From NCBI GenBank assembly GCA_050253075.1, contig JBFWJS010000004.1, positions 96,001 through 160,000 on the forward strand: a stretch of DNA of 64,000 nucleotides. Reading direction: 5' to 3'. Below the pieces are notes generated by a model, which was not told where the DNA came from, made no database searches, and saw nothing but the letters and a program-made list of their open reading frames with translations. Below are positions 14,299-64,000 of this stretch, one piece after another. The stretch's first letter is position 1, and every line of letters begins with the position of its first letter. Source of the DNA: Deferribacterales bacterium. Lineage in GTDB: Bacteria > Chrysiogenota > Deferribacteres > Deferribacterales > Geovibrionaceae. The position numbers were made by a program, and so were the translations under genes.

Positions 14299-15069
14299 AT
14301 GCTTTATAATAAGATAAAATCCGGCATGTTCGTCATGGCGGGTCCATGCGTCATAGAGAACGAAGCAAACATCATGACCATCGCCGAAGAAGTTAAGAAG
14401 ATAAGCGAAGAGCTTAAATTCACATATATATTCAAATCATCATTCGACAAGGCAAACAGGACATCCATAGACTCCTACAGAGGCCCGGGACTGGACGAGG
14501 GGCTGAAACTCCTTCAGAAAGTAAAGGACACCTTCGAGCTGCCTGTCGTCACAGACATACACGAGCCTTATCAGGCTGCGGCTGCTGCCGAGGTTGCAGA
14601 TATTTTACAGATACCAGCGTTCCTCTGCAGACAGACTGACCTGCTGGTCGCCGCTGCTAAAACAGGCAAGATCATCAATATCAAAAAGGCGCAGTTCCTC
14701 GACGGAAGCGACATGAAATACCCTGCACAGAAAGTTGCCGAGAGCGGTAACGAGCAGATCATCCTCACAGAAAGAGGCTCTATGTTCGGCCCGGGCAGAC
14801 TTGTAGTGGATTTCACCCAGATAGTCGATATGAAGAAGCTCGGCTACCCTGTCGTAATGGACGTCACACACTCTACACAACGCCCCGGAGGCGGTGCGAC
14901 ATCAGGCGGTAAACCTGAGTATGCTCCTTATATAGCAAAGGCTGCAAAGGCTGTCGGCGTGGACGGATTCTTCTTTGAAGTACACCCAAACCCTGCCGAG
15001 GCACTCTCCGACGGCAGTAATATGGTGAGACTCTCCGAATTTAAAGAACTGCTTTCAAATACGCTTTAA
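14299..15069 (+). CDS. kdsA: KDO 8-phosphate synthase
   Basis: AGPCVIE, DKANRTS, IPAFLCRQTDL. Confidence 0.96.
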   Translation: MLYNKIKSGMFVMAGPCVIENEANIMTIAEEVKKISEELKFTYIFKSSFDKANRTSIDSYRGPGLDEGLKLLQKVKDTFELPVVTDIHEPYQAAAAAEVADILQIPAFLCRQTDLLVAAAKTGKIINIKKAQFLDGSDMKYPAQKVAESGNEQIILTERGSMFGPGRLVVDFTQIVDMKKLGYPVVMDVTHSTQRPGGGATSGGKPEYAPYIAKAAKAVGVDGFFFEVHPNPAEALSDGSNMVRLSEFKELLSNTL

Positions 15070-48188: not shown

Positions 48189-48264
48189 GCCCAGGTAGCT
48201 CAGTCGGTAGAGCAGGGGACTGAAAATCCCCGTGTCGATGGTTCGATTCCGTCCCTGGGCACCA
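48189..48264 (+). tRNA. tRNA-Phe(GAA)
   Basis: GCCCAGG...CCTGGGCACCA; loop CTGAAAA; CCA encoded. Confidence 0.97.
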
Positions 48265-48293
48265 TTTTTTATAATACTATCAATGATTTACAC

Positions 48294-48326
48294 AAAGACT
48301 AGTGTTTCGGCACTGGTCTTTTTTTT
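48294..48326 (+). terminator. Terminator after tRNA-Phe
   Basis: AAAGACTAGTG-TTTCGG-CACTGGTCTTT plus T-run. Confidence 0.75.
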
Positions 48327-48345
48327 GTGGTACACTCGTGGTACA
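48327..48345. repeat. Tandem GTGGTACA direct repeat, candidate integrase arm-type sites
   Basis: GTGGTACA-CTC-GTGGTACA about 60 bp inside the island edge. Confidence 0.6.
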
Positions 48346-48438
48346 TTTTTGATTGAGATCTTGTGGTTAGGATTGGTTAAAAGTAGTGTATTATGAAATG
48401 TTTAGCCTTTGTTAAAGCATGAGTAATATAACATAGAG

Positions 48439-48825
48439 CTATTTTTCTAAAATATTGATAGATTTCGCCACCAAATATTCTGGAAATAATTCTAAGCTAA
48501 ATCCATTAATAATCAGATATATCTTCTTTTCAACTTCATTGAGTTTCGGATAAATCTCATCATTCAAGAATCCTTCATCCACTAAGTTCTTTAGTTTAAG
48601 GTCTCTTTCGGCTAAATCTTCCTCAAGCTCTTCTTTAGAATTAAACTCGCTGCCATTTATTAAAATACAAGCGACTAAATTCTTATATATTTCATCGTCA
48701 GTATTGACTGAATCTACCGTGTCTTGATAAATCTTCTTAAATGTATTCTTAGCTGATCTATCTTTGAAAAAGATCACAGCTGATACTCCGATGATAACCA
48801 TTACAAACATAGTTACTAATTTCAT
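48439..48825 (-). CDS. Hypothetical membrane-anchored protein
   Basis: GAGG RBS; N-terminal TM segment. Confidence 0.65.
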   Translation of the reverse strand: MKLVTMFVMVIIGVSAVIFFKDRSAKNTFKKIYQDTVDSVNTDDEIYKNLVACILINGSEFNSKEELEEDLAERDLKLKNLVDEGFLNDEIYPKLNEVEKKIYLIINGFSLELFPEYLVAKSINILEK

Positions 48826-48895
48826 ATTCTTGACCTCGCTATAAACTTTCCCAATTATGAATTAACTCAAAATAAATCGCCACTGAATTGGTCGG

Positions 48896-49231
48896 CTATC
48901 TGTCTAATTCTAGTTCCAATTCAATAATTCTTTCCTCTAGCTCATTAATTTTCTCTTCTAGCGTTGTTGCCTCATCGAAAGTGTTTTTGTTACTTATGTT
49001 TTGATAAACTTTGTTGAAATGGAAATTGGCTTCTAATGTATTTAAATGGTTTTGGAATGAATTTGATTCTATGCTGAAAATCAAGTATCCAATAACTACA
49101 TATAATCCATACTCGAAATAAATTATCATTAATATAGCAATAATTAGCTTAATTGCAGTAAATGAAATAATGCTAAAATATTTGCTATCCTTTTTTGATT
49201 GGATATTAATGTCATAATCAAGCATAAACAC
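48896..49231 (-). CDS. Hypothetical membrane protein with C-terminal coiled coil
   Basis: AGGAG RBS before GTG; hydrophobic middle, LEEKINELEERI. Confidence 0.6.
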   Translation of the reverse strand: MFMLDYDINIQSKKDSKYFSIISFTAIKLIIAILMIIYFEYGLYVVIGYLIFSIESNSFQNHLNTLEANFHFNKVYQNISNKNTFDEATTLEEKINELEERIIELELELDR

Positions 49232-49324
49232 GCTCCTACGAATTTATTACTTAAATCATAACTCATATTTTACATAATTGTGTATTTGATTGTACTTATG
49301 CTATTATCAATGTGAGGTATTGAT

Positions 49325-49996
49325 ATGGAATTAACAAAAATCATGATGTTGGTATGTTTCGCACTCGTTTTGGTTTCATGTGGCAGTAGGTATGGACTAG
49401 ATGTTACAGGATATGGCGATATTAGTAATGAAATAAAAACTTATGATGTTGCATTAACACCACAGCTGAAAAAAGACCTCGAATATATGGAATATGTGAA
49501 GTTGCTTGATAATAAAATGAGATGTCTGGGGTGGACTAAAACAACTGACAATCCTATATACCTTGTGCATCTTCAAGCTGGAATTGATGGAGGACGTAAT
49601 TCTACCTCTGCTGTACCAATATTTGGGCAAACAGGTGGTGGCTCAAGTTATACTACTGGTTCTTTTAATACAACAAGCACATATGGAACGTACACAGCGC
49701 GAACAACTTACTCTCCAAGTTTCGGAATGGTAGGAGTATTACCTGTAAATGTAACAACCTATACTCGATATGTTACGATATCCTTATATGATCCGACTAA
49801 TAGTACAGAAACTCCTGTATGGATGGGAAAAACCATTAGTAGAGGGTCAACGGGAGTCCTAAACAAAGTAATGCCTGTGTTGATGGAGTATACAGTTAAA
49901 GAAATTGGTAAAAGTACTAATGGAACAAAAAGTTTTACTGTAACATTATCTGAAAAAGACGTTGAGCAGCTACGAACAACCTGTAGTGTCAGGTAA
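49325..49996 (+). CDS. Lipoprotein (DUF4136-like)
   Basis: GAGG RBS; lipobox LVSC; YTRYVTISLYD...VWMG. Confidence 0.75.
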   Translation: MELTKIMMLVCFALVLVSCGSRYGLDVTGYGDISNEIKTYDVALTPQLKKDLEYMEYVKLLDNKMRCLGWTKTTDNPIYLVHLQAGIDGGRNSTSAVPIFGQTGGGSSYTTGSFNTTSTYGTYTARTTYSPSFGMVGVLPVNVTTYTRYVTISLYDPTNSTETPVWMGKTISRGSTGVLNKVMPVLMEYTVKEIGKSTNGTKSFTVTLSEKDVEQLRTTCSVR

Positions 49997-49998
49997 TT

Positions 49999-50027
49999 CT
50001 ACTCAGCCCATTTTTCGTTCTAAATTG
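49999..50027 (+). repeat. 29-bp arm-spacer-arm site A
   Basis: CTACTCAGCC-CATTTTTCG-TTCTAAATTG. Confidence 0.65.
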
Positions 50028-50124
50028 AATCTCGCCCAATTCTGTCCAAAACTTATAAAAATTCAGTAACTGCATCCTGTAATAATGAACAATAAATATG
50101 TATTTGCTCGTTAGTGGTGCTTAC

Positions 50125-50178
50125 GTGAAAATCATTAAGAACTTAAAAGACGACAATGTAGAAATATATCAGCGAGGA
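50125..50178 (+). pseudogene. 5' remnant of a second copy of the island integrase
   Basis: VKIIKNLKDDNVEIYQRG vs integrase MKIIKSLQDGDVALYQRG (12/18 counting the shared GTG start). Confidence 0.75.
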
Positions 50179-50188
50179 ATATTCCTCG
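50173..50188. repeat. GAGGAATATTCCTC palindrome copy 1
   Basis: CGAGGAATATTCCTCG. Confidence 0.9.
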
Positions 50189-50338
50189 TTGAACAGATTA
50201 TTATTATGTTCAAACTGTTCATAGATTGTTACAATATCACACTGAAAATCACTTATGATGTTACGGCTATCTGTATCATGATAGTCATATTATATTTCGT
50301 TGGTAAAAGCACAAAAGAGATGAAGGTAAAGTTGAGCT

Positions 50339-51118
50339 ATGACATCTGAAAAATTTGGTTATTCTGAAAAATCATCTAAAGAGATAATGCATATTTTCTG
50401 GAAAAATTTGCAAAAAGATCCTAAGAACAGAAAATTTCTGTTTTTCTACATTATGATAAGTGAGAAACAGTGCTTCACAAGTAATGAAAGTTTCATGCAC
50501 ATTTTAGAAATGATACCTGCTCTAACCCCAGAGCAAGAAATAAAAGACTTATATATTGAATTGCTTGCAGTTATAAAAAAAATAATGCCAGATACAGGGC
50601 TAACAAACAAAGAGGAACTGGTTAATAATTGTCTCGAAAATCCTGAACTTATAACAAGTATGACAGAAGTAGCAAAAGAAGATAGAGACTATTACGATGC
50701 ATTAAAAGAAGTTATCAGGATTTATATCGAAGATGTTGACCTTGACGTATCACAGATACCTTTCAAAACACAAGTAGCATTCTTAGACTGTTTTTCCGAA
50801 ACTCAAAAAGCACCTATAAGCAAAAAGAAAAATTTGATCCGAACGGATTACAGAAAAGCTTTTTCCGTATGGGCATTAAACGCATTTTTTGGGATAAACC
50901 CAACAAGAAATGACAAAACAGATCGGAATACTAATCCATGTGGATGTGATTTTGTCGCAGATGCTGAAAATTGTAAGTACGGTGAAATAAAAGAGCTTTG
51001 GTTCGATCATAAATTTAAGTTTTACCGTATGTCTGAGATCGAAGATATTTCATACATAATTAAAGATAAAGAAAATAACAAAACTTTATTTTCTCTGGGT
51101 TCAGGGCTAAGTAAGTAG
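50339..51118 (+). CDS. Hypothetical protein, paralog 1
   Basis: Colinear similarity to 51252..52052. Confidence 0.8.
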   Translation: MTSEKFGYSEKSSKEIMHIFWKNLQKDPKNRKFLFFYIMISEKQCFTSNESFMHILEMIPALTPEQEIKDLYIELLAVIKKIMPDTGLTNKEELVNNCLENPELITSMTEVAKEDRDYYDALKEVIRIYIEDVDLDVSQIPFKTQVAFLDCFSETQKAPISKKKNLIRTDYRKAFSVWALNAFFGINPTRNDKTDRNTNPCGCDFVADAENCKYGEIKELWFDHKFKFYRMSEIEDISYIIKDKENNKTLFSLGSGLSK

Positions 51119-51130
51119 CTTTATATCATC

Positions 51131-51144
51131 GAGGAATATTCCTC
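51131..51144. repeat. GAGGAATATTCCTC palindrome copy 2
   Basis: GAGGAATATTCCTC starting 13 bp after the paralog 1 stop. Confidence 0.85.
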
Positions 51145-51251
51145 TCTGCCCAAGACACAAGTTACTTATGAACGCCTTGCTGACTCATAAGAGAAGACAT
51201 ATGAAGCAGTGTTGAATTGACTAATAGATAATTTCTGAGAGGCAAGCCAAT

Positions 51252-52052
51252 ATGTTTACAGATAATAACGAGTACAAAAATGAAATAGAACTTTTGTGTG
51301 AAGAAGAAGCAAAAGAACGGATGAAGTCCTTTTGGTCAGCATTAATAGCTAATCCAGATTATAAAAAATTTCTTTATTATTATATTTTGACAAGTGAAAA
51401 GCAATATTTCAAAAATGACGAGGCTTACAGGCAAATTGAAGAAGAGTTAGAAACCATAACCAAAAATCAAAACGAAGAAGATGTCTATCATGAATTTCTT
51501 GAAGTCATAAAGAAATTGTTGCCCGACACAGAACCAACAAACAAAGATCAGATTATTAAAAAATGTGTCAGCAATCCAGATTTTATAAGACATGTTGCAA
51601 TAAATTCAAAAACAGACAGAGACTACTACGATGCTTTCATGGAAGTCATGAAAATGCTTTTTGAAGATAAGATAAGCATATTAGAGCTACCACCAGAAGC
51701 ATATACTGTATGGTTAAGTTTTACTTGTGGTGCATTAAATCCTACTCAGGCTAAGAAGAAAGTTCTAATCACTGAAGAGCATAGAAAAGTATTTTCCGTA
51801 TGGGCACTAAATGAGTTTTTTAAAGTAAAGCCAAGCACAACTGTTAATGGGGACAAAAACGGTGTTGTTAAGACTTGTGGATTCGACTTAGTAGCCAATG
51901 CTGAATATACTAGTTATGAAGCAATGAAAACACTCTGGAGTAATTATAGGCGTAAAAATACTTACAAATTTTATCGCTTATCTGAAATTGAAGATTTGCC
52001 AGTGATAATAACTGATGAAAACAAAAAGCTACTATTCGAAATAAACGACTGA
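51252..52052 (+). CDS. Hypothetical protein, paralog 2
   Basis: Shares SEKQ, PDT, DRDYYDA, FSVWALN, KFYRxSEIED with paralog 1. Confidence 0.8.
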   Translation: MFTDNNEYKNEIELLCEEEAKERMKSFWSALIANPDYKKFLYYYILTSEKQYFKNDEAYRQIEEELETITKNQNEEDVYHEFLEVIKKLLPDTEPTNKDQIIKKCVSNPDFIRHVAINSKTDRDYYDAFMEVMKMLFEDKISILELPPEAYTVWLSFTCGALNPTQAKKKVLITEEHRKVFSVWALNEFFKVKPSTTVNGDKNGVVKTCGFDLVANAEYTSYEAMKTLWSNYRRKNTYKFYRLSEIEDLPVIITDENKKLLFEIND

Positions 52053-52202
52053 TCATACATGATATTTAACCTCATCATCCTGAATTAATAATCTCCGTGT
52101 GGCACAACCACATCAAATCTTCCCCACTTATTTTTACCACTCATCACAGATATAGTTTTCTTAACAAATGGCTCGCAAGAGTCAAAAAAAGGAGACACTA
52201 TT

Positions 52203-52784
52203 ATGTGTAAATTAAACAATGTATCAAAAATGTCCGAAGAACAAAAAACTATGTCAGCAGAGCTTAATGACTATCTGTATCGAATTCATGAAGCTATCAG
52301 CGAAGCCAGAAAATCATCTTATAACATTTTCGCTGTATTTCTTGAGGCGCATGAGAATCTTAGCAACATTGAGTTCAATGATTTCTTAGACAAGGTTGAG
52401 TATGAAAAGAGCAGTATCAACAAGATGATGAAAATCTGTAAAAACAAGACTCTAGTCAAGCACATCGGCTTAGGGGGGCTTCCTGAAAGTTGGGGCACAC
52501 TTCATCAAATCGCATTTCTGAAAGAAAGTGATATTGATAACTTCATTAGTGACGGTTCACTAAACAAGAACTCGACCTTTAATGACGTTACGAAGTTACG
52601 TGATTCTACCAAGACTAACTCTGCTAGTACTGGCAGTAAACGTTACGTTCTTCAATTTAAAGAATCTGTCGAAATAGACAACATTGCAAAAAATGAAATA
52701 AAGCAAGCCATAAAAATATTTGAGAAGTACTTTTCTACTGATGGCAAATTATTCAACAAAATATTTGGAAATAGTGAAGGTTAA
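52203..52784 (+). CDS. Phage-type hypothetical protein (DUF3102-like)
   Basis: AGGAG RBS; KMMKIC...LPESWGTLHQI motif. Confidence 0.6.
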   Translation: MCKLNNVSKMSEEQKTMSAELNDYLYRIHEAISEARKSSYNIFAVFLEAHENLSNIEFNDFLDKVEYEKSSINKMMKICKNKTLVKHIGLGGLPESWGTLHQIAFLKESDIDNFISDGSLNKNSTFNDVTKLRDSTKTNSASTGSKRYVLQFKESVEIDNIAKNEIKQAIKIFEKYFSTDGKLFNKIFGNSEG

Positions 52785-52786
52785 TC

Positions 52787-53407
52787 ATGAATAACATGAA
52801 AACATTCGATGATTTCATATTTCATTCAGTACTAAGGAATGAACTAAAATATCTGCTAAATAACCCAGAGAGGATTCCAAGTCCTCTCTGCTTCTACGGC
52901 AGACCAGGCAACGGCAAGACATCTTTTGCTAATTATATAGCAGAAACATTTTGCTCTGAAGGATTTTACTATGACATGAATGAATACAAAAAGAGTGGTG
53001 CAAGTAGTGGGAAACTGCTGGAAACCATTAACCGTTATGCGTCTATGGCAACAATAAATGATGAAAGCAAACCTCTAGGTAAATGTATAATACTCGATGA
53101 ATGGCACAACGCCACATACTCGCAACAAGATGCATATAAAGTGCCTTTTGAAACGTACTCGCAAAAAGCAAACGTACTATTCATACTATGCTTAAACACA
53201 GACTGGAGCCTGCCCATTGAAAAGGCTCTTAGTCCTGCTATTAAGTCTAGGTGTCACTGTGTTTCATTTGATACAAGAAGTTCACAGTTGCCAGAACTTA
53301 AAGCACTAGTTAGTGAGCGATACCCTAATTTGAGTGAGACACAAATAGCTACTGCTTTACCAGACATGCGGGTAATACAGAGACTTGCTGATATGTACTC
53401 AGCTTAA
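52787..53407 (+). CDS. AAA+ ATPase of the clamp-loader clade (RFC/gp44-like)
   Basis: KTFDD, GRPGNGKTS, IILDE, FILCLN, AIKSRC, PDMR. Confidence 0.8.
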   Translation: MNNMKTFDDFIFHSVLRNELKYLLNNPERIPSPLCFYGRPGNGKTSFANYIAETFCSEGFYYDMNEYKKSGASSGKLLETINRYASMATINDESKPLGKCIILDEWHNATYSQQDAYKVPFETYSQKANVLFILCLNTDWSLPIEKALSPAIKSRCHCVSFDTRSSQLPELKALVSERYPNLSETQIATALPDMRVIQRLADMYSA

Positions 53408-53421
53408 GTTCATCAATAATG

Positions 53422-53447
53422 ATCAGCGAGGAATATTCCTCGCTGAT
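53422..53447. repeat. GAGGAATATTCCTC palindrome copy 3 (26-bp perfect)
   Basis: ATCAGCGAGGAATATTCCTCGCTGAT. Confidence 0.92.
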
Positions 53448-53553
53448 TTATTTTCTGAATGCCTGACCGTTTTTATGCAACTCCCCAGCATAACCATTAA
53501 CTAAAGATGTATTTCTTAAACTAGGAATATTATAATCACTACGAGGTGTTTAA

Positions 53554-54759
53554 GTGAAGATTATCAAGAGTTTACAAGACGGTGACGTAGCTCTTTACCA
53601 GAGAGGTAAATACTACCACTGCCGACTGAAAGTGAATAACGAATATATTAAAAAATCATGCAAAACAAAGCATTTAAATGAGGCTGAGAAGTTCGCCTTA
53701 GACAAGTACCTTGAGATCAGGTACAGAGCGGAACATAACCTTCCGATTGAGTCTAAAAAATTCCAGAATGTTGCACATATAGCAATCAGGAACTTACAGA
53801 ACCAACTGGATTCAGGGGATGGCAAGGAGGTCTATTCTCACTACATTGGTTGCTTGAGGCGATATTTCATTCCTTTTTTCAAAAACAAGAACATCGACCT
53901 GATCGGGTACAAAGAAATGAAAGAGTTTGACGAATTCAGAAGAAAGAAGATGGGTAGAGTCCCATCTGCATCTACAATCAAGACTCACACTTCTGCCCTG
54001 AACTATGTCTTTGACATTGCAATTCAGCATCAGTGGATATTGAAGTCACAAATTCCACACCCCAAAAATCAAGGGCGTAAAGCGAGCAGAAGACCGCATT
54101 TTACTAGAGAAGAGTACAGGAAACTCGTTAGGAACATGACTGAATGGTCTAAAACAGGTCACAGAAAAACAACTCGTGATATCAGAGTGCTACTGAGAGA
54201 CTATGTACTGATTCTGGCACATACTGGCATGAGGTGTGGTAGGGAAAGTCTAAACCTTAAATGGAATCAAATCGAGTTCTTTAAGCATAATGGTGATGAA
54301 TATCTCAAGTTCTATGTTGATGGAAAAACAGGTAAGAGAGAACTGATTGCTCACAATAATATAAGAACCTATCTGGAGCGGATTAAGGACAGATTTGAGG
54401 ATTTGAAAGACTTATCTCTGAAAGAATGTACCAATTCAAATGAGTATGTTTTCAGAACTCCTGACGGTAGGAGACCGGGAAATCTGCTTAGAAGTTTTGA
54501 ACAGCTTCTGGTTTATTGTGACCTGTTACATGACAAGTACGGAGACAGAAGAACCCTTTACTCTATTCGCCACACATACGCTACAAAACAACTGAGCAAA
54601 GGAGTTAATATTCACCTACTCGCAAAACAGATGGGGACATCGGTAAAAATGATTGAGGAACACTACTCGCATCTGGTTCCGTCCATGTCTGCGGATATGT
54701 TATCTGGCAGGAATCATTTCAAAGAAGAAATAAATAGTATAAAAGTGGTGGTTAAATGA
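53554..54759 (+). CDS. Tyrosine integrase
   Basis: TGMRCG, GKTG, YSIRHTYAT, QMGTS, EEHY; N-terminal arm-binding-like region. Confidence 0.93.
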   Translation: MKIIKSLQDGDVALYQRGKYYHCRLKVNNEYIKKSCKTKHLNEAEKFALDKYLEIRYRAEHNLPIESKKFQNVAHIAIRNLQNQLDSGDGKEVYSHYIGCLRRYFIPFFKNKNIDLIGYKEMKEFDEFRRKKMGRVPSASTIKTHTSALNYVFDIAIQHQWILKSQIPHPKNQGRKASRRPHFTREEYRKLVRNMTEWSKTGHRKTTRDIRVLLRDYVLILAHTGMRCGRESLNLKWNQIEFFKHNGDEYLKFYVDGKTGKRELIAHNNIRTYLERIKDRFEDLKDLSLKECTNSNEYVFRTPDGRRPGNLLRSFEQLLVYCDLLHDKYGDRRTLYSIRHTYATKQLSKGVNIHLLAKQMGTSVKMIEEHYSHLVPSMSADMLSGRNHFKEEINSIKVVVK

Positions 54760-54941
54760 GTTTCATAGAAATGCTAAAAAAATCTGATAAGAATTGCTTT
54801 GAGTACGACGGGGCTTATATCCTGATTTCAGAGACTAAGGCAGAAATTGTTCATGTCCGAGAAGGTCAGGTTAAGTCCTCGTACTTCAAGCTAAAAATCC
54901 CCAAGAGATTAAAGAGATCTGAGATCATCTATCTCGGATAA
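54756..54941 (+). CDS. Small hypothetical protein coupled to the integrase
   Basis: ATGA overlap with the integrase stop. Confidence 0.5.
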   Translation: MSFIEMLKKSDKNCFEYDGAYILISETKAEIVHVREGQVKSSYFKLKIPKRLKRSEIIYLG

Positions 54942-55016
54942 TTGGCAGAACAATTATGAATTACCGTCGTTGTGAGCTCAAAAAGGTCATCAACTTGAAG
55001 CCTACCAGATTATAAT

Positions 55017-56129
55017 TTAATTTTCTGTTACCTCACAATATTCAATCGAACTATTTATAATGCGTACTTTTTTTATGTCTCCATTTGGTTTTGCTGAATC
55101 AACGCCGAAAAGAACATAATTATCACCTGTAGCTTTATTACTCTTGTATTTAACCCCATGAACAAAAGGTTTTCTACGGTCATCAGATCGTAATGATTTA
55201 AGATATTCACACAAATATTGTGTTGGTAGATATTCAAATTCACTGTTTTCTTCTAATACCGGCTTATTTAACTCCTGTGCAACATAATTCAAAAGGTCAC
55301 GGTAACGTAATTTATCTTTAAATCCATCAACAAACGGAGACTCAATAACCATTTCTTTTCCCAAATCAAGAATTCTCAATTTTTTAACAGCATTAAACTT
55401 TACATAACAGACTTCTGTCTTTACAGGTGGTCGAACCTCATTTATTGCTGTATCAACGTCTGAAGCTAAATACAAGTACGGTATCCCTTTTGGGTTAGCT
55501 CTTCCAGAATTAGCCTTACCAAATGGAGGAGCTTTCAAATCTTTAAATTTGTATTTAGCACCTCCATCATGAATCCGTGCTCTATAAAAGATTTTAGATG
55601 CGTCTACAATTTCATAATTTTTGAATGTAGCGATTCCTGTTTTAATTAAACTTTCAAAATCTTCAAAATCTCTGCCTCTTAATAAAAATCTATTCTTGAA
55701 AATTATGCTTTGAGATATTTTTTGAAAACAAATCTTTCCGTATTCACTATATAAAGAGGAACGATTAGGGAAAATACGACCTATACTATTTGCTGATAAC
55801 TGCAATATAGAATCTTTCTCATCTTTAAAAAGATCGCTTAGTATCAATTCGCATCTCGATTGAGCGATAAACATGTCCCAATCTTTCTGTATTCCTTGAA
55901 AAAGATTAATTTCCCATTTTGATAAAAATGCTGCTCCAAAAATGGAATCGTTGTTATTGATAACTTTATAGAAATTGATTAATTCTAGGAATCTTTCTTT
56001 TAAGGCTAAAATATCTATGACATGATCTCTTATGGCATTACAGTAAGAGCATTTCCCACTGTGCCCTGACTTCAATATATCATTTTTAATAATTTTATCG
56101 TTAAAACACTCTGTACAACAATAACTCAT
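55017..56129 (-). CDS. RES-domain protein with N-terminal Cys-rich region
   Basis: CTECF...CSYC; YRAR, GRANPKGIPYLY, EVRP, YLPTQ, YKS; start at ATG 56129. Confidence 0.88.
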   Translation of the reverse strand: MSYCCTECFNDKIIKNDILKSGHSGKCSYCNAIRDHVIDILALKERFLELINFYKVINNNDSIFGAAFLSKWEINLFQGIQKDWDMFIAQSRCELILSDLFKDEKDSILQLSANSIGRIFPNRSSLYSEYGKICFQKISQSIIFKNRFLLRGRDFEDFESLIKTGIATFKNYEIVDASKIFYRARIHDGGAKYKFKDLKAPPFGKANSGRANPKGIPYLYLASDVDTAINEVRPPVKTEVCYVKFNAVKKLRILDLGKEMVIESPFVDGFKDKLRYRDLLNYVAQELNKPVLEENSEFEYLPTQYLCEYLKSLRSDDRRKPFVHGVKYKSNKATGDNYVLFGVDSAKPNGDIKKVRIINSSIEYCEVTEN

Positions 56130-56212
56130 GTCTTGCCTCACAATTTTTACGTTAATAAAAACACAACTAAATTGCAATTCAATTACGATATGTTTAGAGT
56201 GTACTTCTAAGT

Positions 56213-56845
56213 CTAAAATAAATCCATTGTGCTGTTCGACTGATCTATAGAGTTGAACAATTCCTCGTTATGATATTTCAGATAAATCAGCGTGTTATTG
56301 ATTGATTTATGTCCCAAGAATTTCTGTAAGAGAACTATGTTCATACCTGTTGAGAGAAGGTGAATTGCTCTGGAATGGCGGAACATATGAGAATGTCCGA
56401 AACTCTCTTTAGACTCTCCCAGAGTCCTCCTGATTAGTTTTCTCAGCCTGTACCAGATAGCAGGGTTGGAGATTTGCTTCTTTCCAGATTTCTTTGAAAA
56501 GATGTAGTCCGAATTATTCATATAGTTTTCAGTCTTATGAAGCATGAGTAATTTGGTGAGTTCGGACGAGAGTTTCAGGATACGAAAAGAGGGTTTTCTT
56601 TGCTTAAGTGTCATGACCTTAACCTTGTTCTCATAGAACATAACATCATCAAATTTCACGTTCATCCCTTCTGTTATTCTACATCCAGTCTCGAACATGA
56701 ACAGGAACACCATTTTCCAGAATTTTGAATCCTCTGCCGAAATCAGGGTCATTATATCGGACACATGAAGGTACTTGATTTCGTCTGATTTTTCAGATTT
56801 GACCACTTGAACTAATGTAGTATCACAGATTTGTATTTCTTGCAT
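56213..56845 (-). CDS. Small tyrosine recombinase (ResD-like resolvase)
   Basis: TGCRITE, TLKQR, HMFRHS, LGH, TLIY; no arm-binding domain. Confidence 0.88.
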
Positions 56846-56851
56846 AAATAG

Positions 56852-56900
56852 CTCCTAGATTTAGACTTTTACCACTTGGTTATTATATTAAATCTAGGAG
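56852..56900. promoter_or_regulatory. Inverted repeat upstream of the resolvase (candidate res site or operator)
   Basis: CTCCTAGATTTA-25bp-TAAATCTAGGAG. Confidence 0.7.
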
Positions 56901-56988
56901 AGAAATACAGAGAAGAAATAGCATAAAGCTATTAAATACCAATAGTTTAGTTATCAGCATTTAACATTATAGTTCATTCTATTAAATT

Positions 56989-57017
56989 CAATTCAGACCG
57001 TTTTTCGTTCTAAATTA
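56989..57017 (+). repeat. 29-bp arm-spacer-arm site B
   Basis: CAATTCAGAC-CGTTTTTCG-TTCTAAATTA. Confidence 0.8.
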
Positions 57018-58463
57018 ATAGGTCTTTTCAGAGAAGCCAATAATCATGTTCAGTTCTTGGTAGATGAATTGCCTCAGTTCATTTACATCAATTTTACCAT
57101 CAAAGATTACACAGTCATGTATCTGGTAAAAATCAGCGATTCCTTTGCTTTCAATAAATTCAATCATCTTTAATCTAACCTGCCGTTCAACCAGTTCATA
57201 GATTCTGTAAATTCTCCTATCATCTAGAGATTTGCCCCTGCCTTTCCCTTTAAGTGTTTGATTATGTTCCTGTATCTCAGCATCAATCATGTCTTTGAAA
57301 TCCTTAACCCTGATATTGCCAATCTTGAAGAATTCATTTGAATCAGAATTTTGGTGATAGAACTTTTCAAGAACTCTTTCCCTTAGTTTATTTGTTTCTG
57401 CGATATACGGTTCAACTAGTTTCTTGCATTGAAGAATTGATTTTGGCGAAAAAAGATTATTCCTCTGTTTGCAGTATTTGTATATGATTCTGCTCTTTGG
57501 CGAGTAGCTAATAGAAGTAATGATCTCTTTTGCCAGCGGTTCACTGCATCTGAAAACATTGGTGTATTTCCATCTGAACATTGACTTATTGGTTATCAAT
57601 GAATAATGGGCTGGGAAATCTTCTTTAAGATAACTCAGAGAATTCCTCTTGCTCTGAATAATCGTGTTCATGTAATACAGGTTCACCAGAACAGATTGAA
57701 TGGCAGAGTTAATATCTATTTCCGTGTATCCCTTCAATATCACTGACCTGAAATTCTTTGAAAACATACCTATTGTCGTGTATTCCCTTCCGTGCCCCTC
57801 AAGGCTCGACTTTAAGACCTCGTTTTCAGCATATACATATTCACTATCACTACCGATGCAGTTATTCAGCAGTATAAGGAAATCATCACAAAGCCCTTTC
57901 TTAAACTCCTTGTACAGCTTCAAGAAGATGTCTTTTCTCACTTTGATAAAACTATCTGCTTTTTGATCTGCATCGGTTCTGAGAACTGTTCTAATCTTCT
58001 CTTTATGAGCATCTTCGTAATATTGGAACTTATCTAAGTACTTGATCTGTCTAACTGTCAGCCACATTGCAGTATCAACAGCTTTATTGATTAAATCAGA
58101 ATATGTATACCAATGTGGGTAGCCATTACGCTCTGAACCTTTGCTGTTGTTTCTGTGATATGTCGAGTTATCCCCCCTTCGGAAGAATACAAAATACTTA
58201 CTGAGCTTGTTCCTCTTTAATATTGCTAAGTCAGTACTGAAAATGTGGTATTCGTCAACATGTCCGCTACTGGGAAGGTGCTTATTCTGGTAAGAATAAC
58301 TGATTATCTTGGCTAATGTTTCAACCAACCCTTTCAGCGTTAAATGATGGTACTTCACATCCTTGTACTTTCTCAGGATTCTAATCTGGTTTAATATCTT
58401 TTTATTCAGAACTAATTCTAACTTCTCTTGAAATATCTGTTTCATATCTGGCATGTTATTCAA
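57015..58463 (-). CDS. Minimal family-A/T7-like polymerase (TV-Pol-like), start uncertain
   Basis: GREY, motif A EIDINSA, motif B AKEIITSISY (K-x7-Y), motif C QIHDC. Confidence 0.7.
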   Translation of the reverse strand: MNNMPDMKQIFQEKLELVLNKKILNQIRILRKYKDVKYHHLTLKGLVETLAKIISYSYQNKHLPSSGHVDEYHIFSTDLAILKRNKLSKYFVFFRRGDNSTYHRNNSKGSERNGYPHWYTYSDLINKAVDTAMWLTVRQIKYLDKFQYYEDAHKEKIRTVLRTDADQKADSFIKVRKDIFLKLYKEFKKGLCDDFLILLNNCIGSDSEYVYAENEVLKSSLEGHGREYTTIGMFSKNFRSVILKGYTEIDINSAIQSVLVNLYYMNTIIQSKRNSLSYLKEDFPAHYSLITNKSMFRWKYTNVFRCSEPLAKEIITSISYSPKSRIIYKYCKQRNNLFSPKSILQCKKLVEPYIAETNKLRERVLEKFYHQNSDSNEFFKIGNIRVKDFKDMIDAEIQEHNQTLKGKGRGKSLDDRRIYRIYELVERQVRLKMIEFIESKGIADFYQIHDCVIFDGKIDVNELRQFIYQELNMIIGFSEKTY

Positions 58464-58713
58464 TTAAGTGATTTGACCGAGAAGCTCACGAGCGGAAACT
58501 AAGAGTTCTAATACAGTAATGTTTGATGAACCAAAACCAAACAAAAAAGCAACTTTTACTGCTAAGGAAAACTAATCCCTTCTTTGTGTTCCTTTAGTTC
58601 CCTTCTATTAGTTCTAACCTCTTATTTCTTTATTTCTCTTTAATCACCTTTCCTTTAATTTTCCTCTATTATGTTGAACAAGTAACAACCACTTAACCTA
58701 GTTAAATGGCTTT

Positions 58714-58742
58714 TAATTCAGAATATTTTTCGTTCTGAATTA
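58714..58742 (+). repeat. 29-bp arm-spacer-arm site C (perfect arms)
   Basis: TAATTCAGAA-TATTTTTCG-TTCTGAATTA. Confidence 0.82.
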
Positions 58743-58982
58743 GTCCTGTCTTTCTCTTAGTTCTCTGATTAGATCGGCTGTACTGATTGGTTGTATTGCA
58801 GGTTTCATGACCTCTTGTTCCTGAACAATATTGCTTCTTGTACTCTCAGTACCATGCTTGTAATGATGCTCTTTTACCAGATCACAGATAAATGAACTCA
58901 TATTGTTTGACGATGTTTTCAGAATCTCGTAAACCTCTTCTGTAACTGATATTGTCATTGCCTTTTTCTTGTAGTTTTTCAT
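58740..58982 (-). CDS. Ribbon-helix-helix-like small DNA-binding protein
   Basis: AAGGAG RBS; KAMTISVTEEVYEILK...NMSSFICDLV. Confidence 0.7.
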   Translation of the reverse strand: MKNYKKKAMTISVTEEVYEILKTSSNNMSSFICDLVKEHHYKHGTESTRSNIVQEQEVMKPAIQPISTADLIRELRERQD

Positions 58983-59153
58983 GATTTTATCTCCTTTAGA
59001 TAATATTATTTATATCTCTAAATAGGCATTTAAATACTCACAGCGACACAGATAATGGCTAAATAATAGTTTATTACCATATGTTTAACTAAAGAGAGTA
59101 TGAGTCATTTATGAATATTAAGGAATGAACAGGATAAATCCCGAAAGTTATAT

Positions 59154-59173
59154 AGCGAGGAATATTCCTCGCT
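59154..59173. repeat. GAGGAATATTCCTC palindrome copy 4 (20-bp perfect)
   Basis: AGCGAGGAATATTCCTCGCT. Confidence 0.9.
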
Positions 59174-59266
59174 TGTTAGATTTTTTCATATATGGACGTA
59201 CTTGGTTTTAGAGTAAATTGTCTTTGTATCTTTTTGGTGCTAAAATCACCATTAGTGAGGTCAAAC

Positions 59267-59620
59267 ATGAGAACAAACTCTAAAAGCTACATTCAAAATA
59301 ATTTCCCCGACTTACTTCAATATAAATGTACTACTAGTCGCATGTATGAGAGCAAAGATAAATCTAGCTATAATGATAACTGGTGGTTCAACTTCAATCT
59401 TAATGATTTAGGGAAGGACGATTACATAGTATTTGCAGGAGCTTTAGACTACAATAATCAGGATTTTCGCATTTACAAAGTACCAGTTGATTTCATTAAG
59501 AATAATCTCCAACATCTTTATAACAAAGAAGGATTTGTAATTTTGTATATCACTATGGAATCATCTATCGACATCAGGACAAAAAACAAAATTTCTTTCA
59601 ATGCTTTTAGATTAAATTAA
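59267..59620 (+). CDS. Hypothetical protein
   Basis: GAGG RBS before ATG 59267. Confidence 0.7.
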   Translation: MRTNSKSYIQNNFPDLLQYKCTTSRMYESKDKSSYNDNWWFNFNLNDLGKDDYIVFAGALDYNNQDFRIYKVPVDFIKNNLQHLYNKEGFVILYITMESSIDIRTKNKISFNAFRLN

Positions 59621-59649
59621 GCATAAACTTGGCAAGATAAAGTTCAAAA

Positions 59650-59677
59650 AAGGAGCCTCCCTATCGGGAGACTCCTT
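59650..59677. terminator. Hairpin between convergent genes
   Basis: AAGGAGCCTCCC-TATC-GGGAGACTCCTT with upstream A-run. Confidence 0.65.
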
Positions 59678-59715
59678 GAGACCTATATTATTCCCTTTGT
59701 TTGTAGATTTAGCTG

Positions 59716-60969
59716 TTATAAGGAACTGGCATAGCCAATGAGTTCATTGTAATCCAGAGTTCCGTAGTTATCTGAGAAATTGAACCAACCAGAAAGACCA
59801 AATGGTGCTGATTCTGTATTCTGCTCTGATACAGAGTCAATTCGGGTGAGAATATTCCTTGTTGTTGCTTCAAGCTCAAAATCATCGACAGTACAGCCGT
59901 CAAAATCAGCAGACGATTTATTCACGATGTTCTGAATCTCGTACATGTTCTGAGTTCCGGCAATGTCATTCAGAATGTCTTCATCAGCATAGATGTAACC
60001 CTCTGAACTCTGACATGTATAATCGGAATCATCACCGAGCCTTGATTCAAAAGTGGTGAATGTATAGACCTCAGTGTTCGAGTCAGGATTCTGTCTCACT
60101 CTTTCACTATAAGATATTGGTCTGATTTCGGTTTCCAGATCATCTTCTACTTTAGTGAGTTCGTAGATTGTTCTCTCGTTAGTGAACACGATTACGTCTT
60201 TATACCAAGCATCTGGATAAGCATTTTTGTTGTCGATTTCACTGCCCTGATAGTATTGAACCATTACAAAGTTAGTGTCACCGTACTGTGCTTTGAGAGC
60301 AAGTGTGTCCTCAAGAGACTTGGCAAGGACAGGTACAATGTCTCCTGCAAGGTCATGAGCGACAGCATTCTGTTCTTCTACATAGTCAGAATAGAGTTCT
60401 TCTTCTGTAAGCCCAAGTGTCTGAGACACGTTCTGAACTGTTTCATCCATGAGCAAAAGAATGTCCTGAACTGCTGATGGGTTTGATGAGAAATAGTCAC
60501 ATGTTACATCTGCACCATATTCCTGAAATATCATGCTCTGAATCTTAGTCCAGAGAACAGAAGTTAAAGGTGTGATGTGAGCTGTTGTTTTCTCAGTTGT
60601 GCCGCCAAAATTTGGTGTTCTGAACATCTGATATGCTTCTGTTACTGTGCCATTCTCTAGGTCAACTGCACCGACAGGAACATCAACCACGAGTGGCGAG
60701 TTCCAAGCACATGCTTTCTGTGTTTCATCTTCAAAAGTCAGGTTAAAGAGTCCGCCTTCTCCAGATACTACAGATGGTTCACCATCATCAAGCTCACCGT
60801 TGTAGTTCAGGTCATAAAAGATTGTTGCTCCTTCAATGTAACCATCAATGACCTTACCTGCCATATCAGCAGTGGTTAAGTCTGAATCTGATGAACTGGA
60901 AGACGAACCGCCACCTCCACATGCAGTCAAGGAAAGAAGCACTAATAACATCAAGCAGTATCTTTTCAT
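59716..60969 (-). CDS. Acidic surface lipoprotein
   Basis: GGAGG RBS; lipobox LTAC plus GGGGSSSS; GKVIDGYIEGATIFYDLNYNGELDDGEP, ITPLTS. Confidence 0.8.
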   Translation of the reverse strand: MKRYCLMLLVLLSLTACGGGGSSSSSSDSDLTTADMAGKVIDGYIEGATIFYDLNYNGELDDGEPSVVSGEGGLFNLTFEDETQKACAWNSPLVVDVPVGAVDLENGTVTEAYQMFRTPNFGGTTEKTTAHITPLTSVLWTKIQSMIFQEYGADVTCDYFSSNPSAVQDILLLMDETVQNVSQTLGLTEEELYSDYVEEQNAVAHDLAGDIVPVLAKSLEDTLALKAQYGDTNFVMVQYYQGSEIDNKNAYPDAWYKDVIVFTNERTIYELTKVEDDLETEIRPISYSERVRQNPDSNTEVYTFTTFESRLGDDSDYTCQSSEGYIYADEDILNDIAGTQNMYEIQNIVNKSSADFDGCTVDDFELEATTRNILTRIDSVSEQNTESAPFGLSGWFNFSDNYGTLDYNELIGYASSL

Positions 60970-61042
60970 TGTAAAACCTCCATAAATGATTGTAAAAATT
61001 AGATTTTATAAGGTTATTCACTTATAAATCTTCGACAATAGA

Positions 61043-61058
61043 ACCGCATATATGCGGT
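61043..61058. promoter_or_regulatory. Perfect palindrome, candidate operator of the XRE regulator
   Basis: ACCGCATATATGCGGT in a divergent intergenic region. Confidence 0.65.
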
Positions 61059-61092
61059 GTATAAACTTTAAACTTTAATGCAGAATTTGTAA

Positions 61093-61311
61093 ATGGATAA
61101 TATCAATTTAAGATTTGCAAAAACGCTTAGAATGTTACGAACTGAAAGGAACATGACTCAGGAAGAACTGGCAGAAAAGTCAGGTATTGACTATAAGTAT
61201 CTTCAGAAATTAGAAGGGCAAAATCCTTCATCACCAACATTATCGACCCTTGAAAAACTTGCCAAAGGGTTGAGTATAACAATAATACAGCTTTTAGCAG
61301 ATATTCAGTAA
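61093..61311 (+). CDS. XRE-family HTH regulator
   Basis: LRMLRTERNMTQEELAEKSGIDYKYLQKLE...PTLSTLEKLAKGL. Confidence 0.9.
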   Translation: MDNINLRFAKTLRMLRTERNMTQEELAEKSGIDYKYLQKLEGQNPSSPTLSTLEKLAKGLSITIIQLLADIQ

Positions 61312-61501
61312 TACACGCAGCATTTCAGCCGTGTTATTGAACGATATTTCTGTTGCTCTTAATGTGTCAATTTCAGAGCTAATGCAACACGACCACAAAG
61401 ACGATAGCGAACTTCTAAAGAAAGAGGTCATAAAGTATATCAACAATGCCAGCCCAGAAACCATTCAGAAGATATACTTCTTTATTAAGAATATATTATA
61501 G
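61310..61501 (+). pseudogene. C-terminal remnant of another XRE regulator
   Basis: NTRSISAVLLNDISVALNVSISELM...TIQKIYFFIKNIL; lacks the first HTH helices. Confidence 0.55.
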
Positions 61502-61515
61502 ATGACTATATGATA

Positions 61516-61544
61516 CAATTTAGACCATTTTTCCTTCTGAATTA
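61516..61544 (+). repeat. 29-bp arm-spacer-arm site D
   Basis: CAATTTAGAC-CATTTTTCC-TTCTGAATTA. Confidence 0.78.
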
Positions 61545-61599
61545 ACAGGATTATTGCCTGAATTGACTTTCAAAGATCATAAATGTTAAACTAAATTCA

Positions 61600-62322
61600 C
61601 TAAATGATATTTTTAAAAACAACAATAAAAGCACAAAGAATAAGCATCAAGTTAACTATTACAGAGAAAGTCCTGTCGCTAATTTTCCTGAGGAATTTAC
61701 GACCAAAATAATTACCCGTAACCGCCCCAACTCCTGCTATAACCCCAATAAGCAAGACTTTGGAATCTATCATGCCAACTGTAGTGTATGTGCCTGCTTT
61801 GAATAATTGCATAACAATAACAACAGCAGCTTTTGTGCCTAGTAGCATTTCTTTTTGCATGCCATAGTTCATGTAAAACGGATTCATTAAAGGACCGCCC
61901 ACACCAACAATCCCTGATATAAAAGAAGAGATTGTTCCGGCTATTGGAAAGTGCCAGTTTTTAACTTGAAACAGCTTTTTCTCTTTGAAAAATAGTGCCC
62001 ATACGCCATTTAACAAATAGAATCCTGCCAAAAAATATGCAATTACCACAGGGTTAACAAAAGAGAATAGGTAAGCTCCAGACACCGCTCCGATTATGAC
62101 ACCCGGCATAACAAGCAATGAGACTCTAACATTAATTGATTTTCTGTATAAGACTATTCTGCTTAAACCAGACAACAAACCTGCAACAGCGACAGCAGGT
62201 GCTACTGTCTGTATCGAAAAGAACATTCCTGAAACAGGGACAAAAATCATTGCCCCTCCGCCACCAGCCAGAGTACTGAAAAACCAAGATAAAGCACCTA
62301 AAACAAAAGGTAATAAAAGCAT
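61600..62322 (-). CDS. TauE/SafE (TSUP) family transporter
   Basis: AGGGGAMIFVP and GVGGP repeats; multiple TM segments. Confidence 0.9.
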   Translation of the reverse strand: MLLLPFVLGALSWFFSTLAGGGGAMIFVPVSGMFFSIQTVAPAVAVAGLLSGLSRIVLYRKSINVRVSLLVMPGVIIGAVSGAYLFSFVNPVVIAYFLAGFYLLNGVWALFFKEKKLFQVKNWHFPIAGTISSFISGIVGVGGPLMNPFYMNYGMQKEMLLGTKAAVVIVMQLFKAGTYTTVGMIDSKVLLIGVIAGVGAVTGNYFGRKFLRKISDRTFSVIVNLMLILCAFIVVFKNII

Positions 62323-62343
62323 AATCCCTCATGTAATAATGTA

Positions 62344-63258
62344 TTAAAATTCTATAACTATCTTTCCCATATCTTTTGTGTCGTAACCGCCAATATGGGC
62401 AAATTCATCTCTGAAAGCATCTGAACGTATTATGCTTAATAAAGATTCAATCTCAGGAGTCCCCATATCTTCTCTCTTGAATACTAAGTCATACCTTTCT
62501 TTTTTGATTGGAACAAATTCAATGCCTTCAACTTGTTTAGCGATTTTCTCAGAACCGATAGCGACATCAGCCTTTCCTGAAGCAACAACACTTGCGACAG
62601 TTAAATGAGACTGGATTTCTTTTTCGTATCCTGAAATATCCTTTCCGAAAATACCTAAAAGTCTGAGGTTCTCATCCAGCAGTACCCTAGAGCCTGAGCC
62701 TTGTTCACGGTTGACCATCGTTATGTCATCACGCCTAAAGTCTTCCCATTTTATTATATTTTTCGGGTTTCCTTTGGCGACATAAAAACCTTGGATGCGA
62801 CAGGTTAAGTGGACAATAACAGCAGGAATCCCAGGTAGCAGTCTACGCACATAAGGAACATTGTATGTGTCAGTGTCGCTGTCCCAGAGGTGGGCTGATG
62901 CAACACTTACCTGATTCCGATAAAGAGCGACAAGGCTATCATAGCTCCCAATGTATGCTCGCAATGCAGGTGTATTATGCTGACGCATATAGTTTGAGAG
63001 TATATCCAGTATTATATCCTGACCACATAACACAAACCCTTTATTTGCGATACCACTGATTGCTTCATTTTTAACGGGGATATTCGCTTGTTTGCGACCT
63101 TTAATATATGATTTGACATCATCTTCTGAAAAACGAATTTTCCGTCCAACTTTGTAAGATGGTAACTCACCGTTTTTTATTAAGCTATAAACCTTGCTCT
63201 TACTGATTTTTAGCATTTCGCTAATATCTTCTACAGAAAGCTCATCTCTTGACATCAT
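62344..63258 (-). CDS. Excisionase-type HTH plus PBP-domain regulator (oxyanion-sensing family)
   Basis: LSVEDISEMLKISKSKVYSLIKNGELPSYKVG; GSYDSL, AHLWD, NREQGSGSR, ERYD; GGAGG RBS. Confidence 0.88.
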   Translation of the reverse strand: MMSRDELSVEDISEMLKISKSKVYSLIKNGELPSYKVGRKIRFSEDDVKSYIKGRKQANIPVKNEAISGIANKGFVLCGQDIILDILSNYMRQHNTPALRAYIGSYDSLVALYRNQVSVASAHLWDSDTDTYNVPYVRRLLPGIPAVIVHLTCRIQGFYVAKGNPKNIIKWEDFRRDDITMVNREQGSGSRVLLDENLRLLGIFGKDISGYEKEIQSHLTVASVVASGKADVAIGSEKIAKQVEGIEFVPIKKERYDLVFKREDMGTPEIESLLSIIRSDAFRDEFAHIGGYDTKDMGKIVIEF

Positions 63259-63272
63259 AAAGCCTCCAAATC

Positions 63273-63300
63273 TTGACAAATACGCCAATTAATTTAAAAT
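63273..63300 (+). promoter_or_regulatory. Putative sigma70 promoter of the gap paralog
   Basis: TTGACA-16bp-TAAAAT. Confidence 0.5.
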
Positions 63301-63422
63301 AAGACATAAAGCATAATTTATACATGTTTTAGTGTTATTTAATCTATTTAAGCACAGCTCAAGACGAGAAACAAGAACATTTAAGTTGAAAATTATTTCT
63401 TAATAAAACAAGGAGTGATTCT

Positions 63423-64000
63423 ATGAATAAAAAAATTGCAATTAATGGATTTGGAAGGATAGGTAGAGTTTTATTTAAACAGATTATTAACGATGACAGA
63501 TATGAAGTAAAAATAATAAACGATCCCGCAACAACAGAGATGATGGTTTACTTATTAAAACATGATAGTACTCTTGGCACAATGGATATGCAAAACGAAT
63601 TGAAAACGGGCTGTGATTTCATAGATGTACATGGACAACATATACATACAACACATGAAATTGAGCCAGATAACCTATTATGGGGTAAATACGATATAGA
63701 TATTGTAATCGACTGCTCAGGCACTTACCTTTCTAAAGAGAAAGCACAGAAGCATCTTGATGCCGGAGCAAAGAAAGTCATATTGTCTGCCCCTGCTGGT
63801 CATGATATACCAACTGTCGTATACGGAGTTAATACAGAAATATTGACATCAGATGACCGTATCATTTCTGCGGCATCTTGTTCTACCAATGCACTTGCGC
63901 CTATGGTGAAAGCCTTGAGTCAGTATGCCAATATTTTAGCTGGGAACATGCTTACAGTTCACGGATATACTGCAAGCCAAGTTCTTGTGGATAATGCACA
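63423..64000 (+). CDS. gap: Type I glyceraldehyde-3-phosphate dehydrogenase paralog (3' partial; not in ORF track)
   Basis: AGGAG RBS; MNKKIAINGFGRIGR, IND, GAKKVILSAP, SAASCSTNALAP. Confidence 0.92.
   Translation, partial: MNKKIAINGFGRIGRVLFKQIINDDRYEVKIINDPATTEMMVYLLKHDSTLGTMDMQNELKTGCDFIDVHGQHIHTTHEIEPDNLLWGKYDIDIVIDCSGTYLSKEKAQKHLDAGAKKVILSAPAGHDIPTVVYGVNTEILTSDDRIISAASCSTNALAPMVKALSQYANILAGNMLTVHGYTASQVLVDNA

Follow-up and report, generated by a model that had tools for sequence, protein, structure and literature searches.

In this work we analysed a window of 64,000 nucleotides from contig C4 of a Deferribacterales genome (G000; 3.04 Mb in 17 contigs), in which an island of 16.5 kb is integrated at a tRNA-Phe gene and carries several copies of a 29-bp repeat. 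Sequence comparisons lead us to propose, with a probability of roughly 0.7, that these repeats are exchange sites of the island, composed of two 11-bp arms and a 7-bp spacer (11-7-11), and that they serve as the core sequences on which a tyrosine recombinase acts. The best candidate for this enzyme is the 210-amino-acid (aa) Int210, encoded beside one of them. That they are recombined by some tyrosine recombinase is somewhat more probable still, and the genes swapped at them are likely to be defence and metabolic genes. An initial annotation of this DNA had interpreted the repeats as tyrosine-recombinase-type sites that delimit modules, which is supported here by their enrichment in islands, their constant orientation and the reassortment of their flanks across relatives, while its alternative, an operator of a regulator or of Rep, fits less well.

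The 29-bp sites

Sites A (49999–50027), B (56989–57017), C (58714–58742) and D (61516–61544) all lie on the + strand, and the coordinates, strand, sequences and spacings initially given for these four co-oriented 29-mers are all correct. A fifth site, E, lies just past the window edge, at window position 64485–64513 (G000:C4:160485). A degenerate pattern with up to three mismatches finds the positions of A–D only in the window (six matches, including reverse readings of B and C), and none in 100 dinucleotide shuffles. With leave-one-out matrices each omitted site is regained at 28.8–37.8 bits, compared with at most 20.4 bits for unrelated DNA of the 3.04-Mb genome. When the matrix is built from 15 sites of other genomes and contigs only, the seven sites of G000 rank top (30.8–44.3 bits), the next unrelated place in G000 scoring 11.9 bits and the maximum over 200 simulated islands being 15.3 bits.

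These seven strong matches, A–E on contig C4 and F and G on contig C3 (91745 and 95318), are the only ones in the genome, and all of them lie in low-GC islands (35% and 34%, compared with 48%). This is the outcome of the genome-wide matrix scan for which the initial annotation had called, and a motif equally common throughout the genome, which would have spoken against its interpretation, is not what is found. F and G flank a BbrUII-like restriction gene and a cytosine methyltransferase gene directly behind tRNA-Leu(TAA), at a locus without any recombinase gene.

To deduce the layout, complementarity between the two halves was compared over 22 sites. It extends to positions 11 and 19 in 16 of them and to positions 12 and 18 in only five, which argues for an arm of 11, a spacer of 7 and an arm of 11, with the consensus YAATTYAGAMC RTTTTTC GTTCTRAATTR, in which G8 and C22 are invariant. 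The spacer is asymmetric and is conserved as strongly as the arms. The 10-9-10 arrangement proposed previously fits these sites less well, and with it disappears the oddity of a 9-bp spacer. Core sites of tyrosine recombinases consist of two arms of about 11–13 bp around an asymmetric spacer of 6–8 bp, and the 11-7-11 sites, with their inverted arms, have this layout. The same arrangement is described for the att site of IntA (PMC4928290) and for XerC/D sites (PMC5790767). Most sites carry the spacer RTTTTTC, while five sites of the arrays in genomes G023 and G029 have a second class, similar to GATTTTT; the two classes may be unable to recombine with each other. Spacers of eight bases are present in the G027 and L084 sites, and a decayed site is present in G026.

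The pattern is present in five of 68 genomes of the phylum, all belonging to the family of the window, and the reversed-pattern control in none; decayed copies were detected in two further genomes. In the collections, the strict pattern gave no match in genome_contigs and a looser one gave two matches there, eight in metagenome_contigs and none in viral_contigs. Five of these ten (L081, L083, L087, L088 and L089) are single matches without island features and were discarded as chance, L086 repeats L084 and L080 was kept out of the site set, leaving a gain of three independent metagenome loci. The collection scan also found the site in a record titled Deferribacteraceae, and the primary site with its promoter (see below) had no match in plasmids. 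Site-bearing islands are located at tRNA-Phe, tRNA-Leu, tmRNA and one other locus, and the sites are kept across four genera even though their flanks are unrelated. Nineteen of 20 sites at tRNA or tmRNA loci, which are kin to one another, share the direction of that RNA gene whichever way the neighbouring genes run.

Reassortment of DNA at the sites

The 100-base flanks of 25 sites were clustered. Eleven of the 25 share their right flank, the promoter region of an integrase gene of the type of Int401 (the second recombinase of the island, described below), behind 10 different left flanks. Site A is of this "primary" type. On the + strand, a promoter-like stretch that is conserved comes next, together with a truncated copy of an Int401-type gene, of which the 20 initial codons are left (50028–50184); in sequencing run X6 this stretch continues directly into the intact integrase start. 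The site beside the integrase promoter is the commonest exchange point. Partial sharing is also seen elsewhere: E has only its left flank in common with site 023A and only its right flank in common with 023E, and 023L3 and 029a share the right flank only.

Several modules are found between sites in differing contexts, namely the TauE module (G000 and G023), a module with a 525/414-aa gene (G023 and G029) and a 174/163-aa gene (G030 and L085). In G023, the TauE–PBP–GAPDH module is placed between tRNA-Phe and the integrase core with a site at the join, an arrangement which, judged from its sequence, is the product expected from recombination of E with A. A site-less copy of the TauE block on contig C3 aligns with an island segment that starts at the outer edge of D and reaches into the left arm of E.

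Strains were compared using contigs of eight of 23 listed runs, in the coordinates of L106; one of the eight, X1, may be the source, and the other seven are runs of other strains. These seven keep much of the backbone and carry different DNA from the left end to A and from the HTH gene to E, with joints at 3001–3004 (site A) and at 17492 or 17513 (site E). Cargo slot 1 of the window (48401–49998), with genes for a 128-aa protein, a 111-aa protein and a DUF4136 lipoprotein, is in other strains occupied by different DNA that ends at site A. The joints listed, leaving out rows of the same length that are only diverged, merge into 31 breakpoint groups, of which three fall inside sites (expected fraction 0.009, p 0.003) and four within 20 bases of them (p 0.003–0.004). 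One loose end in run X3 begins at the first spacer base of A. Reassorted flanks and strain joints at A and E are two signs of the flank exchange that characterizes core sites.

The island and its two recombinases

The island has a GC content of 35%, compared with 48% in its flank, and holds all five C4 sites. Its integration site is tRNA-Phe(GAA) (48189–48264, + strand): bases 48220–48276 recur at the far end as attR (window position 64677–64733, beyond the window), a repeat of 57 bp with 94.7% identity whose copies are 16.5 kb apart and whose identity sets in at the anticodon loop. In run X6, one contig links the right end of the island to its left end, forming an attP-type joint. The conserved left end (48265–48400, + strand) consists of a terminator-like hairpin and two direct TGGTACA repeats (48328 and 48339); two more such repeats lie between site E and attR, and the pairs at both ends are conserved in relatives. 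The repeats are likely to be arm-type sites of the tRNA integrase. With attL and attR derived from the tRNA 3' repeat, Int401 and a deviant GC content, the island fits a tRNA-targeted integrative element. The core of its tRNA att is unlike the 29-bp site, and this difference between the internal sites and the tRNA att implies two recombination systems.

Int401 (53554–54759, + strand) is a 401-aa tyrosine integrase with an intact reading frame and residues R227, K258, R339 and Y371, and is likely to be the tRNA-targeting integrase. Relatives were examined in eight of 46 viral loci; in six of the eight, two of which look like one element, a called tRNA is no more than about 330 bases away, and these loci carry short direct repeats and no repeated 11-7-11 site; the homolog in G032 lies beside a tRNA-Leu att copy. 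Integrases of the arm-binding kind work on att sites with arm repeats (PMC8138268), a mode that fits Int401 and the TGGTACA repeats. An N-terminal arm-binding domain may be supposed in Int401, for which no profile match was obtained, and a search of PDB sequences with this protein returned nothing.

Int210 (56213–56845, − strand) has all six catalytic residues (R56, K81, H153, R156, H179 and Y188) in an intact frame that starts 143 bases from site B, and its length and sequence matches suggest that it consists of the catalytic domain only. Because the tRNA att, with a core unlike the 29-bp site, suffices to explain Int401, and because the non-primary sites have no common flanks, a second, arm-independent enzyme is implied. 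If the sites are recombined, the odds are slightly better than even that Int210 is the enzyme, a choice made purely by elimination; Int401 is a distinctly less likely candidate, and another enzyme acting in trans a doubtful one. A perfect 12-base inverted repeat (56852–56900) surrounds the −10-like box and ribosome-binding site of Int210. It is a possible autoregulatory site or anti-Shine–Dalgarno hairpin, and bears a weak likeness to the site arms, with a mismatch at an invariant position.

Between sites B and C lies the gene of a 482-aa protein (57015–58463, − strand), whose stop codon coincides with the last 3 bases of B. Its predicted structure (pLDDT 89) resembles a family-A polymerase (TV-Pol/CCPol-like), the best Foldseek matches being Pol I and T7 polymerase (E 8.6e-5, with a low TM of 0.25–0.38); D250 is invariant and a QxHD motif nearly so. 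It is likely to be a replication or priming gene, and mobile elements carrying such polymerase-like primases have been described (bioRxiv 2022.12.02.518924). No helicase or single-stranded DNA-binding partner was identified for it, it had no match in plasmids and the PDB sequence search was empty.

These elements can be assembled into a possible mechanism. Int401 would insert and excise the whole element at the tRNA anticodon loop via the TGGTACA arm repeats, and the circle released in this way would be replicated by the polymerase-like protein. The role of Int210 would be recombination between two sites whose 7-bp spacers match, at first as a multimer resolvase. With several sites present, two elements could fuse at one pair and resolve at another, so that modules would be swapped or permuted; the enzyme genes would later decay, leaving site-flanked cargo parked at tRNA genes, as on contig C3. 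A wider and only tentative suggestion is that the system captures genes as a self-contained platform, different from integrons and from pdif modules, in which a catalytic-domain-only recombinase would shuffle site-flanked modules within a replicating, tRNA-integrating element, with entry beside the integrase promoter and defence cassettes left parked once the enzymes decay. The modules concerned would be restriction-modification, retron, nucleases, metabolic blocks derived from integrative and conjugative elements (ICE) and the element's own replication and attachment modules.

Counter-evidence and alternative explanations

A number of observations weigh against the proposal that the sites are exchange sites used by Int210. 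Concerning the enzyme, Int210 is present in only two of the 68 phylum genomes and in none of the four other site-bearing genomes. Moreover, G032 encodes homologs of Int210 (58–61%) and of Int401 (51–52%) and yet has no site (best score 5.2 bits); a de novo search for a repeated 11-7-11 site in the G032 element found none, nor was one found with distant relatives of Int210 (about 35% identity) in Mu-like phage contigs (7 of 16 loci). Concerning the joints, 27 of the 31 breakpoint groups among those listed lie away from sites, many of them being alignment drop-outs. The RES-domain gene (55017–56177, − strand) is missing in six of the eight runs although neither of its edges carries a 29-bp site, the contigs of the eight runs show no clean deletion between two sites, and the B–C module is retained in long contigs of runs X3 and X4. 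No site marks the left edge of either main cargo slot (L106 positions 1384 and 14497–14500, the latter being the HTH stop codon), and the tRNA-Leu array of G023 has no site at the place of D. One G023 site is inverted, and a weak G030 site probably is too. Finally, left-arm variants partly track the right flank, contrary to what a crossover in the spacer would give: C is found at position 10 in 10 of 11 primary sites and in four of 13 others (p 0.005, but p 0.11 and not significant when a single spacer class is considered). An odd left arm is common to E and 023E; the latter also has the right flank of E, together with a spacer and right arm like those of the neighbouring 023L3, a mosaic that plain spacer crossover does not explain. 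The off-site breakpoints, the loss of the RES gene and the arm variants indicate that site-specific exchange is one route of change in the island and not the sole one. A half-site at the HTH 3' end was considered as an entry site and rejected, homology simply stopping at the stop codon.

In one alternative, the sites would be the att cores of Int401, each belonging to an element made of site, promoter, integrase gene and cargo, and the arrays would be tandem accretions with decayed integrases. The promoter region does follow 11 of the 25 sites, with a recognisable Int401 start 92–127 bases further on in six of these; L082 and L084 each have two tandem sites followed by promoter or integrase remnants, the promoter of site A runs directly into the intact gene in X6, and an overlap of 7 bp is usual for arm-binding integrases. 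This explanation is nevertheless rather unlikely. Relatives of Int401, including that of G032, are located at tRNA genes where short direct arm repeats are present and the 29-bp site is absent, and the island already possesses its own tRNA attL and attR, TGGTACA arms and attP-type joint, with a core unlike the site. The non-primary sites, in addition, lack a common flanking arm sequence, and the linkage to the promoter is explicable by simple descent.

A second possibility is that a mobile element now lost left the sites behind as its ends or footprints. Such relics would provide short homology for rare deletions and fusions with no dedicated enzyme today. Most site loci do carry integrase remnants only, some sites are decayed (the G026 copy, and the 8-base spacers in G027 and L084), and a clean two-site excision was not seen in the eight runs. 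Against this stand the intact frames of both recombinases and the conservation of arms and spacer over four genera; for these to be conserved while the flanks are unrelated, selection or recent activity is needed, and we regard relics as quite unlikely.

Operators of a dimeric regulator of the island (the 80-aa open reading frame, ORF, or the HTH protein), with swaps being incidental, are a very unlikely explanation. A, B and C do lie 97, 143 and 250 bases upstream of an integrase remnant, Int210 and the polymerase-like gene, respectively, and 023L3 and 029a directly precede a ribosome-binding site. However, D and E are at gene 3' ends and B and C overlap stop codons, the spacer is conserved like the arms, the direction of the sites is constant irrespective of gene direction and the flanks reassort. 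Furthermore, the 16-bp perfect palindrome CGAGGAATATTCCTCG, with four copies in the island, is a better operator candidate.

The least probable of these readings makes the sites pdif-like targets of the host XerC/XerD: two Xer-sized recombinases are present in 16 of 16 family genomes and the module layout resembles that of pdif modules (PMC5790767, PMC9455709), but the host dif candidate (C6:29892–29919 in G000) is a different 28-mer (11-6-11), found once in each of the 16 genomes and with neither arm like the site, which makes action of XerC/XerD most unlikely. An attC or a structured RNA was rejected, given sites of 29 bp, predicted single-strand folds of 0 to −6.2 kcal/mol and tRNA as the only Rfam match in the island.

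Comparison with known systems

In integrons, the IntI integrase acts on attI and attC, with a primary site next to the 5' end of the integrase gene, variable cargo beyond it and co-oriented sites. The present system resembles them in its primary site at the integrase 5' end (11 sites with 10 left flanks) and in co-oriented sites that part cargo including defence genes. It differs in that neither enzyme is an IntI (19.1 and 49.2 bits with TIGR02249, whose cut-off is 265), in the absence of an attC hairpin (A, D and E have a weak fold or none) and in its modules, which are multi-gene, occur in both orientations and include core genes of the element itself.

In the pdif modules of Acinetobacter, many short arm-spacer-arm sites on one mobile replicon bound accessory genes (PMC5790767, PMC9455709). 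Common to both systems are accessory genes of either orientation between sites, a given module in several contexts and arrays eroded by insertion sequence elements; fusion at one site pair followed by resolution at another is also the likely route in both. Unlike pdif sites, which are on plasmids, the 29-bp sites are in chromosomal islands integrated at tRNA genes, they have an 11-7-11 layout with near-symmetric arms and no relation to the host dif, almost all of them point the same way and the enzyme is likely to be encoded by the element.

IntA of Rhizobium etli with attA/attD offers a precedent, a tyrosine recombinase encoded by its element that works on a short symmetric site, a 23-bp palindrome of two arms and a divergent centre that is recombined both ways (PMC4928290). 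In contrast with the arrays of sites around cargo seen here, IntA has two sites per genome, which serve for plasmid cointegration, and the sequence differs. In PAISt, an island is split into modules by internal direct sites (PMC4057263); in PAISt and in att-flanked tandem islands the internal site is the chromosomal att itself, whereas the 29-bp sites inside the present island are distinct from its tRNA att. No description of the 29-bp site or its element was found in the literature searched, mostly freely readable papers without their supplements.

Accessory and anti-phage genes are swapped rapidly at tRNA island hotspots, and the site-specific answers known for this are integrons and pdif modules. 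With its defined site, its two candidate enzymes and alleles permuted in nature, the present system opens a third route to direct test. Should Int210 act on a symmetric 29-bp site that needs no accessory arms, a Cre-like tool of very small size would result. The range is narrow, a single bacterial family so far among the phylum genomes scanned (5 of 68).

Modules, cargo and other features of the islands

Module C–D (58740–61501) contains the 80-aa ORF, whose stop codon is formed by the last 3 bases of site C, a 142-aa ORF, a 417-aa lipoprotein gene and an XRE-type HTH gene (61093–61501) that is frameshifted; intact 105-aa relatives of the latter are at the same place in G032 and G023, and pieces homologous to the module are in the tRNA-Leu array of G023. 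Module D–E (61545–64000, and on to site E) encodes TauE, HTH-PBP and GAPDH and is flanked by sites at another position in G023. The site-less copy of this block on C3 (G000:C3:8056–10991, L070), 85% identical, is in a region that resembles an ICE and contains type IV secretion genes and HipA.

Cargo adjoining sites comprises a retron Ec67-type reverse transcriptase (RT), restriction-modification genes, HNH and NERD nucleases, a trypsin-like protease, TauE, GAPDH and LUD; the majority of cargo genes have no family match. The retron gene, an Ec67-type RT-Toprim fusion in G031 (L025:10696–13128), lies between tRNA-Phe and a 29-bp site, and the retron piece is enclosed by two copies of one terminator hairpin.

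The same right end, consisting of a site, 165 bases with TGGTACA repeats and a tRNA copy, is found at tRNA-Phe in G000 and at tRNA-Leu in G023 (L021:4330–4549 region; G023:C1:785471–785722), and both tRNA copies begin at the anticodon loop. Relics of the element, comprising cargo, a site, the promoter and about 45 integrase codons, are also present upstream of an RNase J gene with no tRNA nearby (G026:C46, L114 in G027, and L085), which makes this locus a further resting place.

A scan for promoters gave 59 matches, no more than the 60.7 expected by chance. Two ORFs (50339–51118 and 51252–52052) are paralogous, with 67% DNA identity over 287 bases, and belong to no known family; they lie in a 3.3-kb block between the primary-site promoter and the intact integrase gene, which is missing in X6. 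The palindrome CGAGGAATATTCCTCG, a candidate operator or hairpin, occurs at 50173, 51130, 53427 and 59156; these four copies, all within the island, are the only ones in the genome even when two mismatches are allowed. Three of the four copies are upstream of genes (259-aa, 266-aa and Int401), one is exactly where the truncated integrase start ends, and three copies are present in G023.

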